Below are positions 51,719 through 54,315 of a stretch of DNA of 64,000 nt, in pieces. Location: positions 8,157,488-8,221,487 of the forward strand of contig CP075497.1 of assembly GCA_021613535.1 (NCBI GenBank), in the 5' to 3' direction. Each line of letters starts with the position of its first letter. Positions within the stretch are counted from its first letter, which is position 1. The notes under the pieces were generated by a model. That model was not told the origin of the DNA. It saw only the letters and a program-made list of their open reading frames with translations, and made no database searches. The translations under genes were made by a program, and so were the position numbers. Origin of the DNA: Adineta vaga (Eukaryota; Animalia; Rotifera).

Positions 51719-52156
51719 CTAAACTTTTGCTTTGTCTGTCAAGTGTTCTTCCAAATCATGAATCATATAATCAACCGGATCAGCAGGTCGGATCAGAACA
51801 ACTTTTGCTGTCAATGTCTACAGATAAAGAATACAATTAAAGACATGTCGATATCAAAATCGTTTAAAATATACTTTGAATAATTCATACATTCCATGTT
51901 GCATCATATATTTATCGGCGAGAACATCTGGATTCTGATTTTGATAATTTTTATGCAACATATTATCAATTTCTTCATCTGTTGCTTCTTGTTTTTCACC
52001 ATCGACATTTATTGTTATTAAACCAAGCATTTGTAAACGTCGTTGTGCTTCTGAATGTGCATTCTCGAGATCAAATTTGGATTTTTTCGTCACAACAAAA
52101 CTGTCCATATCCAACGATTGTAAATTGAACCATTCACTTTGTTGTTCATTCGCCAT
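51719..52156 (-). CDS. Hypothetical small acidic protein with a C-terminal RIIa/Dpy-30-like helix (2 exons)
   Basis: ORF 51854..52156 (MANEQQSEWFNLQSLDMDSFVVTKK...MMQHGM) ends at a GTATGA donor. An acceptor ctgtag then opens an exon reading TLTAKVVLIRPADPVDYMIHDLEEHLTDKAKV-stop. The P-x-DPV-x-Y/F-hydrophobic pattern resembles docking/dimerisation (RIIa, Dpy-30) helices. The call is speculative. Confidence 0.3.
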
Positions 52157-52257
52157 GATGAAAATCTGAAACGAAACAAAATCTATTCAAATCACTAATA
52201 AAAGAAAATCAATAGATTTATTCTATTAAAAAAAGAAAAATGAGTCTTTTGAATTAA

Positions 52258-52906
52258 CCAGGTGGCCATTTGAGTTGTCGTCCGCCGAGAACATGTATAT
52301 GTAGATGATATACACTTTGACATGCATTTCGTCCATTATTGATTACTAAACGATAACCATCATCAGCAAGACCTTGTTTTTTTGCTACTTGTGTAGCAAC
52401 AACTAAGAGATGACCAAGTAACTAAACAAAAGACGTAATTATATGAAAGACAACGAAATTGATTCTACTTTTTCATGTGATGATGTACATGATGATAATT
52501 GTGGAATAGGTTCTTTAGGAATAACTAAAAAATGTGTTGGTGCTTGTTTACTTATATCATGAAATGCTACACACTAAATTTTAGGTAAAATAAGATTTAT
52601 ATTAAAATTCTATTTGTTATAGAAGAAAACCTGATCATCTTCATGAAGTAAATCAATCTTGATTTCTTTTCTAGCAATTTTACCGAAAATTGTATCTTCC
52701 GTTGGTTTAGCTGTTTGTGCTTTCGTTACTTCATCGACAATTTTGGCTGAACAATCTGAAATATTTTCAGTTGTTATCGATTAATATATTCTTTCAAACA
52801 AAAATAACTCACAAGGAGTTGAACGTGAAAAATATGCATAGGAACTAGTACGGTGTACAGTTGCCACCGAAGCTAAACTTAATAAACTTCGTATGACAGC
52901 TGTCAT
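52258..52906 (-). CDS. Histidine triad nucleotide-binding protein (HINT), probably the mitochondrial HINT2-like form (gene span, about 3 exons)
   Basis: Minus-strand start is [30 protein letters not shown], an amphipathic, basic, presequence-like stretch. Then [26 protein letters not shown] ... and the last exon [54 protein letters not shown]-stop, which contains the HxHxHxx HIT motif. Confidence 0.8.
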
Positions 52907-53011
52907 TGATTAATTAAATATATTCTACAACACAAACAAAGCAGTCAGATTACAACGTCAAGACAAACTGAGACATGTTTATTTATTTCACGAAAACAAA
53001 AAACAAAAATA

Positions 53012-53589
53012 TTAGACAGCCGATTGACGATAATTTTTTGTTTGTAAAACTTTCACACCACACATAGTGCAGATACCTAATTTGTAAGCACAACCTGTAC
53101 GAAACAAAGTAGAAAGGAATAAAATCAAATGAATTCTACAGAACAAACCTTGGCAATAGGAACTTCCTGGTTGATGAATTGTTCCTTTACAAACCTTACA
53201 TTTGCTAAATTTTGTTGTATACGGACTGTACCTACAATTAGATTGATTTTATATGATGAAATAAATTTCAGATTGATAACAAACAAACCGTGTTGATTTT
53301 CCACTTAATAATTTATTTTCATTTAATTTTCGACCACCACTTTCTACAAATAACTCATGTAAAAACGAAATAAAGATTTGCAATCATCTATACATACCAA
53401 CTGTATTACGAGAACCACCTGGAAAAAAAATTGTTTTTTGAAGAAAATATTTTCAATAAATAAATCTCGAACATACTTTTCCAAATATCTTGTGTTGCAA
53501 CAGTGCCAACTTTCTTTTGACCTGAAATGCAATATTCTCTTTTCCTAATCTAAGCAAATTTCTAATTACTTACAATTCTCACAAACCAT
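53012..53589 (-). CDS. CRIPT: Cysteine-rich PDZ-binding protein CRIPT (gene span, about 4 exons)
   Basis: Exon 1 is MVCENC with a GTAAGT donor. The next exons read QKKVGTVATQDIWKDGSRNTVG... then ...YSPYTTKFSKCKVCKGTIHQPGSSYCQGC... then ...GICTMCGVKVLQTKNY...-stop. This parallels human CRIPT (MVCEKCEKKLGTVITPDTWKDGARNT...FSTCRICKSSVHQPGSHYCQGCAYKKGICAMCGKKVLDTKNYKQTSV). Confidence 0.8.
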
Positions 53590-53657
53590 AGTAATCTATT
53601 TAAATATATTTTTCTCTTATATCTAGAACAGAAGAAACCTATATTTATATGAACAAA

Positions 53658-54315
53658 TTAATCAGCCATAGGATTCGCATGAATAGTAACACGTTGTATT
53701 CGAATATCTGTTTCTGGTCGATAAGTTTTTTCATTCACTGTTACTTTTTCTAATTCATCAAGTGTTTCAAATCCATCAATAACTTTCGCAAATACAGTAT
53801 ATTTCCCATCGAGATTTGTTTGTTTACTGTAAGTAATAAAAAATTGTGAACCATTTGAATTAGCACCTCGACTTGCCATGGAAACCATTCCTCGTTGACT
53901 ATGCTAAATAGATTCACTTCATTCTTCAAAGAAATCAATAACAACGAAAATCTTACTTTTAAATGAGGATCGATTTCATCCTAAAAAAGAAAATACCGAC
54001 ATATTTCAATGAAAAGATTCGATCTATAAATACATTACTGGAAAATATTCGCCCCATATACATTGTCCACCTTTACCAGTTCCTGACGGATCACCAGTTT
54101 GAATCATATAACCTTTGACATTACGATGAAACAAACAATTATCATAATAATTACTTGCACATAATGCCAAGAAATTCTAAATTGAATTCTTTGTTAATAA
54201 AAAAAGGTTCTTTTTTCTTTTTCATGAAATTATTTACTTCACATGCTTTTGGACATTGTTCACAATAAAGTTCAATTTTAATGTCACCTAAATCAGTATG
54301 TAATGTAACAGACAT
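53658..54315 (-). CDS. PPIL3: Peptidyl-prolyl cis-trans isomerase-like 3 (cyclophilin PPIL3) (gene span, about 4 exons)
   Basis: Exon 1 is [26 protein letters not shown] with a GTAAAT donor. The last exon (ORF 53658..53888) is [76 protein letters not shown]. It is nearly collinear with vertebrate PPIL3 ([28 protein letters not shown]...[76 protein letters not shown]). Confidence 0.88.

Follow-up and report, generated by a model that had tools for sequence, protein, structure and literature searches.

Does a bdelloid rotifer organize ordinary protein-coding genes into operons, or do genes that follow one another at intervals of about 100 bp each carry a promoter of their own? The question is raised by four genes on the minus strand of Adineta vaga contig CP075497.1 (assembly GCA_021613535.1), coding for the cyclophilin-like PPIL3, CRIPT, a HINT2-like histidine-triad protein and a further small protein. 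We have analysed them in the context of a 64,000-nucleotide stretch of the contig (positions 8,157,488 to 8,221,487 of the forward strand, referred to as the window, whose numbering is used throughout). Nematodes, flatworms, tunicates, chaetognaths and some protists are known to have operons whose transcripts are resolved by spliced-leader (SL) trans-splicing, and a rotifer SL has been known since 2005. We argue below that the A. vaga train is probably an operon of this kind, as an initial annotation made from the sequence had proposed. The argument is built on the anatomy of the genome, on its conservation among bdelloids and, in the orthologous loci of relatives, on 5' ends that carry the SL and on RNA that runs through the spacers.

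Gene models and spacers of the train

Base composition around the train is ~30% G+C and the region is of eukaryotic type, with tiny GT..AG introns. The relevant features are the following.

56436..56520, unstranded: divergent gap of 85 bp between the kinase ATG at 56521 (plus strand) and the MFS ATG at 56435 (minus strand), putative promoter of the train
54449..56435, minus strand: FLVCR-like MFS transporter gene ('FLVCR-A'), probable first cistron; start placed by tblastn, stop at 54449
54316..54448, minus strand: MFS>PPIL3 spacer, 133 bp; acceptor TCTTTTTCTTTCTAG, AG at 54317-54316, directly abutting the PPIL3 ATG
54315..53658, minus strand: PPIL3 (cyclophilin-like), 4 exons, 161 amino acids
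53590..53657, minus strand: PPIL3>CRIPT spacer, 68 bp; TATAAA/AATATA at 53649-53640; acceptor TTCTAG|ATA, AG at 53624-53623, 33 nt before the ATG
53589..53012, minus strand: CRIPT, 6 exons, 100 amino acids, equal to NCBI A. vaga I4U23_029830
52907..53011, minus strand: CRIPT>HINT spacer, 105 bp; tandem AATAAA at 52987-52978, GU/U-rich tract, acceptor TTGTAG|A, AG at 52926-52925, 18 nt before the ATG
52906..52254, minus strand: HINT2-like histidine-triad gene, 4 exons, 163 amino acids, equal to I4U23_029829
52157..52253, minus strand: HINT>small-gene spacer, 97 bp; AATAAA at 52222-52217; acceptor TTTCAG|ATT, AG at 52167-52166, 9 nt before the ATG
52156..51719, minus strand: small gene, last cistron, 2 exons, 126 amino acids, 100% identical to I4U23_029828; C-terminal docking domain of RIIa/DPY-30 type
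51634..51644, minus strand: tandem AATAAA 75-85 nt past the last stop codon, putative 3' end of the unit

Explicit spliced models, built on the minus strand for PPIL3, CRIPT, HINT and the small gene, bear out the earlier description of four genes arranged head-to-tail. All 12 introns of these models are 47-61 nt long with GT..AG ends, and three of the four, those of CRIPT, HINT and the small gene, agree residue for residue with NCBI proteins of A. vaga. The PPIL3 model has no exact match in the protein collection searched, yet it covers the whole Pfam Pro_isomerase domain (E = 4e-53) and is 73-75% identical to annotated animal PPIL3; a homologue search with it returned only non-rotifer PPIL3 proteins, confirming the identity of the gene and yielding no rotifer transcripts, and a metagenome scan returned genomic contigs only. 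CRIPT matches Pfam Cript (E = 1e-33) and the histidine-triad gene Pfam HIT (E = 1e-27); because the latter has a presequence-like N-terminal extension of ~30 residues, the label HINT2-like is plausible. The small gene is restricted to bdelloids and matches no Pfam family at threshold. A profile of five orthologues matches docking domains of RIIa/DPY-30 type among solved structures, best FAP385 (E = 1.2e-4), further RSPH4A, EFCAB10 and AK8 and, weakly, the PKA RI docking domain, so that 'RIIa-like' is a reasonable description of the C-terminal 40 residues. For the MFS gene, the orthologue carries Pfam MFS_1 and the sole PDB matches are FLVCR1 and FLVCR2 (E = 4e-10). The train consists of functionally unrelated housekeeping genes, four in number and probably five.

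The spacers within the four-gene train, put at about 68, 105 and 100 bp in the initial annotation, measure 68, 105 and 97 bp. The interval between the MFS gene and PPIL3 had been given as about 280 bp and must be corrected to 133 bp, which makes the MFS gene a candidate first cistron. We lean towards including it in the unit, in view of its spacing and of the conserved AG|ATG at the PPIL3 start.

All spacers share a common layout, in which the stop codon is followed 8-31 nt on by a poly(A)-type hexamer, then by a T- or GT-rich tract, then by a pyrimidine-tract/AG acceptor with A as the next nucleotide and finally, after 0-33 nt of 5' untranslated region (UTR), by the ATG. The AG acceptors, whose presence just upstream of each ATG had been proposed as a check, are thus in place, with their G at 54316 (PPIL3), 53623 (CRIPT), 52925 (HINT) and 52166 (small gene). 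Scored with a position weight matrix derived from the 12 local cis-introns, and with all 2,998 AGs on the strand as reference, the four acceptors reach 4.5-8.6 bits, corresponding to the 91st-99th percentile and lying inside the leave-one-out range of true cis acceptors; that of PPIL3 scores 8.6 bits (99th percentile). The 3'-end signal inside the spacer is AATAAA after CRIPT and HINT, as it also is after the small gene, and TATAAA/AATATA after PPIL3. The distance from poly(A) signal to the following acceptor is only ~16-52 nt. Between PPIL3 and CRIPT it amounts to as little as ~16-20 nt, so that RNA cleavage and trans-splicing may take place at nearly adjoining sites, and in the CRIPT>HINT and HINT>small spacers a short intercistronic stretch is probably kept, as ~50 nt are left after AATAAA.

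Conservation and RNA continuity in related bdelloids

The order and the spacing of the genes are preserved in other bdelloids:

A. vaga (window): MFS-PPIL3-CRIPT-HINT-small, gaps 133/68/105/97 bp
A. ricciae: MFS-PPIL3-CRIPT-HINT-small, gaps 131/55/115/111 bp
Rotaria sp. Silwood1 (several assemblies): MFS-PPIL3-CRIPT-HINT-small, gaps 143/85/102/106 bp
Rotaria sp. Silwood2: MFS-PPIL3-CRIPT-HINT-small, gaps 139/74/106 bp, HINT and small gene fused in the model
Metagenomic contig L008: PPIL3-CRIPT, gap 53 bp

The same five-gene order is found on environmental bdelloid contigs as well. In the annotated orthologous loci the gaps within the train are 55-143 bp, as against 232-1055 bp between other same-strand neighbours, and the spacing of the train is therefore more than chance packing. 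Since Adineta is a member of the Adinetidae and Rotaria of the Philodinidae, two separate bdelloid families, the arrangement is old. Alignments identify the acceptor block as the most conserved part of every spacer: all six CRIPT>HINT spacers have TTGTAG|A and AG|ATG is present in all four species at the MFS>PPIL3 junction. At the upstream end, the divergent gap is 75-78 bp long in A. ricciae and Rotaria and closes, at the start of the MFS gene, with the conserved block ATTGCGTAATTTTCTAG|ATG (...AATTTTCTAG|ATG).

Evidence at the RNA level comes from intron-less JGI and Logan contigs that derive from the orthologous loci of related bdelloids. We take these contigs to be RNA-derived because the introns present in all genomic copies are missing from them and because of an adapter/SL junction. 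Their alignment breaks coincide with the exon borders of the A. vaga models, which validates the latter. Contig L017, from an Adineta relative whose exons are 86-95% identical to the window, contains the PPIL3 3' end, 70 nt of spacer, fully spliced CRIPT, a further 90 nt and spliced HINT; in L007 and L018 CRIPT is joined to HINT through a spacer of 117 or 102 nt, and in L005 HINT is joined to the small gene through 90 nt. Each of the three spacers PPIL3>CRIPT, CRIPT>HINT and HINT>small is thus crossed by cis-spliced contigs.

The same set of contigs includes 5' ends that carry the SL. The first 25 nt of L007, GCGCTTATTAAAACTACTCCAAGAG, match the published 23-nt rotifer SL, GGCTTATTACAACTTACCAAGAG (PMC3795323 Table 1), at 20 of 23 positions and are joined 25 nt before the CRIPT ATG. 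L005 begins with CAAGAG, the last 6 nt of the leader (whose 3' end reads ...ACTTACCAAGAG), at the HINT acceptor position where six of six aligned sequences read TTGTAG. L006 passes from Illumina adapter through AAGAG, the last 5 nt, into ATTGAGAG at the orthologous small-gene acceptor, and in L005 the same ATTGAGAG is preceded by the acceptor TTTTTAG. It follows that downstream cistrons of the orthologous trains are SL trans-spliced at the conserved acceptors. The initial annotation had suggested looking for an SL at the 5' end of every downstream gene; one is present in the orthologues of CRIPT, HINT and the small gene, PPIL3 not being among the SL-bearing 5' ends observed. The L007 leader, seen at its full 25 nt, differs from the published SL by one substitution and small indels and shares its CCAAGAG 3' end; it may be a species variant or belong to a second SL class. 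No match to the SL exon with up to 3 mismatches occurs in the 64-kb window, no SL gene was found in the genomic loci compared, and at Rfam gathering thresholds nothing in the whole of the window was matched, hence no SL RNA or other known family.

Variants of the train occur on environmental contigs. Contigs L022-L025 (ENA/JGI metagenome; e.g., L022 4557-6430) have MFS-PPIL3-HINT-small with CRIPT missing, and their PPIL3>HINT spacer of 71 nt holds both TTATTCTAG|ATATAAA, the CRIPT acceptor, and AATAAA...TTGTAG|AAAG, that of HINT, so that it looks as if the CRIPT cistron had been precisely excised. Contigs L026-L033 (up to 89 kb; e.g., L026 3850-4770) contain CRIPT with fewer introns, a 73-nt spacer and a HINT copy that has no presequence, followed by a convergent peptidase-M2 (ACE-like) gene beyond HINT; PPIL3 and the small gene are absent, and the block is possibly a paralogous (ohnologous) copy of the train. 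These related blocks have apparently lost single cistrons precisely, with spacers staying at ~70 nt, and as both variants remain tightly spaced the linkage persists despite a changed content of cistrons. In A. vaga there is a further CRIPT, I4U23_013339, 87% identical and located on another chromosome (20.35 Mb), a candidate ohnologue.

Public gene models of relatives fuse neighbouring genes. HINT and the small gene form one 293-residue protein in Rotaria sp. Silwood2 (L034 8687-9892), and in A. ricciae MFS-B, F-box and Cyclin_D1_bind, the orthologues of genes that are described below, form one of 794 residues (L001 1-1884). Such fusions have probably arisen in annotation, from the extreme shortness of the spacers or from polycistronic RNA; in flatworms, chimeric gene models have been attributed to polycistronic RNA (PMC12582326).

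A probable SL-resolved operon and the alternatives

From these data we infer for A. vaga a scheme in which RNA polymerase II would initiate at one promoter ahead of the first cistron, with the 85-bp gap before the MFS gene as its most likely place and the region before PPIL3 as the other candidate, and would transcribe the whole train as a single precursor molecule. Ordinary cis-splicing would remove the 47-61-nt introns, the rotifer SL (~23 nt) would be trans-spliced at the pyrimidine-tract/AG located 0-33 nt before the ATG, providing the capped 5' end of each downstream mRNA, and the upstream mRNAs would be cleaved and polyadenylated at the signal found 8-31 nt past the stop codon, with the GU/U-rich tract between poly(A) signal and acceptor probably used by both reactions. 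The polycistronic reading of the initial annotation is accordingly supported in related bdelloids by joined contigs and by the SL at conserved acceptors, and for A. vaga by orthology.

A number of observations weigh against this scheme. All of the RNA evidence is from other bdelloid species and is carried to A. vaga by orthology, the RNA origin of the JGI and Logan contigs is judged from features of their sequence rather than from sample metadata and only 5-6 nt of leader are present in two of the three SL junctions (L005 and L006). The MFS-A acceptor scores only 1.0 bit, the MFS>PPIL3 spacer has no canonical AATAAA and none of the RNA contigs crosses that junction. In addition, the TATAAA in the spacer after PPIL3, at 60 nt from the start codon of CRIPT, might serve as a TATA box instead of a poly(A) signal; L005 and L006 take in the convergent ACE-like gene as well, so that contig continuity in these short-read assemblies stands for overlapping RNA coverage and not for proven single molecules; and the 85-bp gap between kinase and MFS genes implies that very small regulatory regions occur in A. 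vaga. The initial annotation had considered the spacers too short for independent promoters. Short they are, but with only 85 bp between the divergent kinase and MFS ATGs the argument is weaker than stated and brevity is no proof. The last three of these observations lend themselves to an alternative in which the genes are independent and tightly packed, each with a mini-promoter and a short outron and each separately SL trans-spliced, the joined contigs then reflecting read-through, overlap of UTRs and outrons or merging during assembly; Pouchkina-Stantcheva and Tunnacliffe are said to have found in 2005 that at least half of rotifer mRNAs carry the SL, which is not restricted to operons. We regard this alternative as unlikely. 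Once the 3' signal, the T-rich tract and the acceptor have been subtracted only ~16-52 nt are left for a promoter, the conservation of the spacers is focused on acceptor and poly(A) signal rather than on other motifs, the joined contigs would require each downstream transcript to start upstream of the preceding poly(A) site, i.e., inside the preceding gene, and order and close spacing are kept across bdelloid families, against the 232-1055 bp of other same-strand gaps.

Co-transcription might also be combined with one or more internal promoters, as in the hybrid operons of C. elegans, the candidate sites being the TATAAA ahead of CRIPT and the 133-bp MFS>PPIL3 spacer. This spacer is the longest of the four and, besides having no AATAAA, contains a conserved block that is not part of the acceptor, CAATTCTTGTAYAATA; MFS and PPIL3 are linked by no RNA contig; and sub-trains occur in environmental relatives (PPIL3-HINT-small, in which CRIPT is missing, and CRIPT-HINT on its own), which suggests that sub-units remain viable. 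There is, however, no direct evidence of any internal start site, and RNA is continuous over the PPIL3>CRIPT, CRIPT>HINT and HINT>small spacers, so that we consider a hybrid arrangement quite improbable. It is scarcely credible, finally, that the spacers result from mis-called starts or stops or that a single longer gene has been taken apart into its domains, even though annotation pipelines have fused neighbours in relatives: every protein is full-length and aligns over the whole of its family, independent NCBI models agree exactly with three of ours, all species keep the stop and start codons and transcripts of relatives confirm exon borders and in-frame stops. Mis-called gene ends, a concern raised in the initial annotation, are excluded by the models, the Pfam matches, the conserved codons and these transcripts taken together, and a single multi-domain gene is ruled out by the conserved stops and starts. 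An operon of bacterial type or one acquired by horizontal transfer is likewise ruled out, by the spliceosomal introns and by animal orthologues for all of the genes; a scan for bacterial-type promoters and terminators, irrelevant for a eukaryote, gave counts below the shuffled expectation.

The SL-resolved operon that we favour can be compared with systems characterized elsewhere. As in the SL2-type operons of C. elegans, housekeeping genes on the same strand lie ~100 bp apart with AAUAAA, a U-rich stretch and an acceptor between them, and a polycistronic precursor would be produced; the typical C. elegans intercistronic region is ~100 nt, in contrast to the ~16-52 nt from poly(A) signal to acceptor here. 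We know of a single SL family and of no specialised SL2-like leader in rotifers, and that the variant leader which L007 carries on a downstream cistron is such a leader is a weaker possibility. Like the SL1-type operons of C. elegans and those of Ciona and Oikopleura, which have no intercistronic region (PMC12582326), the train would use a single SL for all genes and may have a near-abutting junction, PPIL3>CRIPT, but CRIPT>HINT and HINT>small leave ~50 nt after AATAAA. The flatworms (Schistosoma, Echinococcus), to which the initial annotation had likened the train, offer operons with genes on the same strand at most 300 bp apart, an SL on the downstream gene and chimeric gene models. The comparison holds for the operational definition and not for the organism or the leader, since the animal is a rotifer and its SL, of 23-25 nt, has GAG at the 3' end, whereas that of flatworms, of 36-37 nt, has ATG; S. 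mansoni has a median intercistronic distance of 99 bp, also longer than here. In the chaetognath Paraspadella gotoi ~18% of genes are in SL-resolved operons that have no operon-specific SL and contain housekeeping genes. Chaetognaths and rotifers are treated jointly as gnathiferans, and the authors make a case for independent origins (PMC12460157). The chaetognath SL is unrelated in sequence to that of rotifers, and the chaetognath operons were defined genome-wide by RNA-seq from the same species, those here by contigs of relatives. Use of the general rotifer SL family is a feature shared with the single-SL operons of flatworms, tunicates and chaetognaths. By the thresholds in force for chaetognaths (<250 bp plus SL; PMC12460157) and flatworms (≤300 bp plus SL on the downstream gene; PMC12582326), spacers of 133, 68, 105 and 97 bp together with an SL on the downstream gene qualify as operonic.

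Trans-splicing of individual rotifer mRNAs was reportedly established by Pouchkina-Stantcheva and Tunnacliffe in 2005; what is added here to the earlier rotifer work is the occurrence of the SL on the downstream members of a conserved train of several genes. Rotifer operons were scored 'ND' in 2008 (PMC2481426) and 'not reported' in 2021 (PMC7986045), one paper of 2025 lists rotifers loosely under 'trans-splicing and operonic transcription', citing older work in which no operons are shown, and the searchable literature contained nothing on operons of bdelloids or Brachionus. Documentation of an operon in Rotifera thus appears to be new, the mechanism itself being familiar. Rotifers combine an SL with a compact genome and an operon will not surprise specialists, and the example merits follow-up on a genome-wide scale. 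A conserved, transcript-supported rotifer operon would bear on the joint or separate origin of trans-splicing and operons, would account for errors in bdelloid annotation, where fused models occur at cistron junctions, and would offer a handle on what constrains gene order in ancient asexual, degenerate-tetraploid genomes.

A second train and other features of the window

A second minus-strand train is located at 58815-62307, in which a gene with an LSM domain is followed after 183 nt by an MFS paralogue and, after a further 58 nt, by a gene with F-box and Cyclin_D1_bind domains:

Last exon ending at 61978, minus strand: LSM-domain gene
ATG at 61794, stop at 59927, minus strand: MFS paralogue 'FLVCR-B' (MFS-B), with AATAAA ~25 nt before its acceptor
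ATG at 59868, end at 58815, minus strand: F-box/Cyclin_D1_bind gene

A pyrimidine-tract AG immediately precedes the ATG of both downstream genes, and in A. ricciae the MFS-B>F-box spacer is 45 nt long with the same AG|ATG. The presence of this second train in the window suggests that tight trains are not an isolated phenomenon, and the fused models in relatives point the same way. Considering in addition the conservation of the first train across Adinetidae and Philodinidae, it is a serious possibility, about which we remain somewhat doubtful, that bdelloids have genuine, widespread and ancient SL-resolved operons of an unusually compact type, with the poly(A) signal ~16-52 nt from the acceptor and an SL that often forms the entire 5' UTR (AG|ATG). 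Bdelloid gene prediction and 5'-end annotation should allow for an SL acceptor beside the ATG and for spacers of ~100 bp.

An acceptor AG stands right before the ATG at four minus-strand gene starts of the window (54316, 56436, 59869 and 61795), where the SL, if the acceptor is used, would supply the whole 5' UTR. A window-wide search for a pyrimidine tract with AG|ATG plus an open reading frame gave 10 sites, which is not significantly above the 4.8 ± 2.1 of shuffled sequences; four of the 10 are real gene starts of the two trains.

On the far side of the divergent gap, the gene at 56521-58002 on the plus strand is a single exon of 493 codons in which a cytidylyltransferase-like domain is fused to a protein kinase domain; it is intron-less amid intron-rich neighbours. 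At the other end of the train the convergent peptidase-M2 (ACE-like) gene ends at 51436. Its stop codon is 282 bp from that of the small gene in A. vaga (51437-51718) and ~104 nt in a relative (L005 983-1086; L006 411-514), and since L005 and L006 run from one gene into the other the two 3' ends apparently overlap or read through. Elsewhere in the window, open reading frames with major-vault-protein (MVP) domains (Vault_3, Vault_4 and MVP_shoulder) are present at 31809-32825 on the plus strand and at 35551-36126 on the minus strand, ~3 kb apart, and look like an inverted pair of MVP paralogues.

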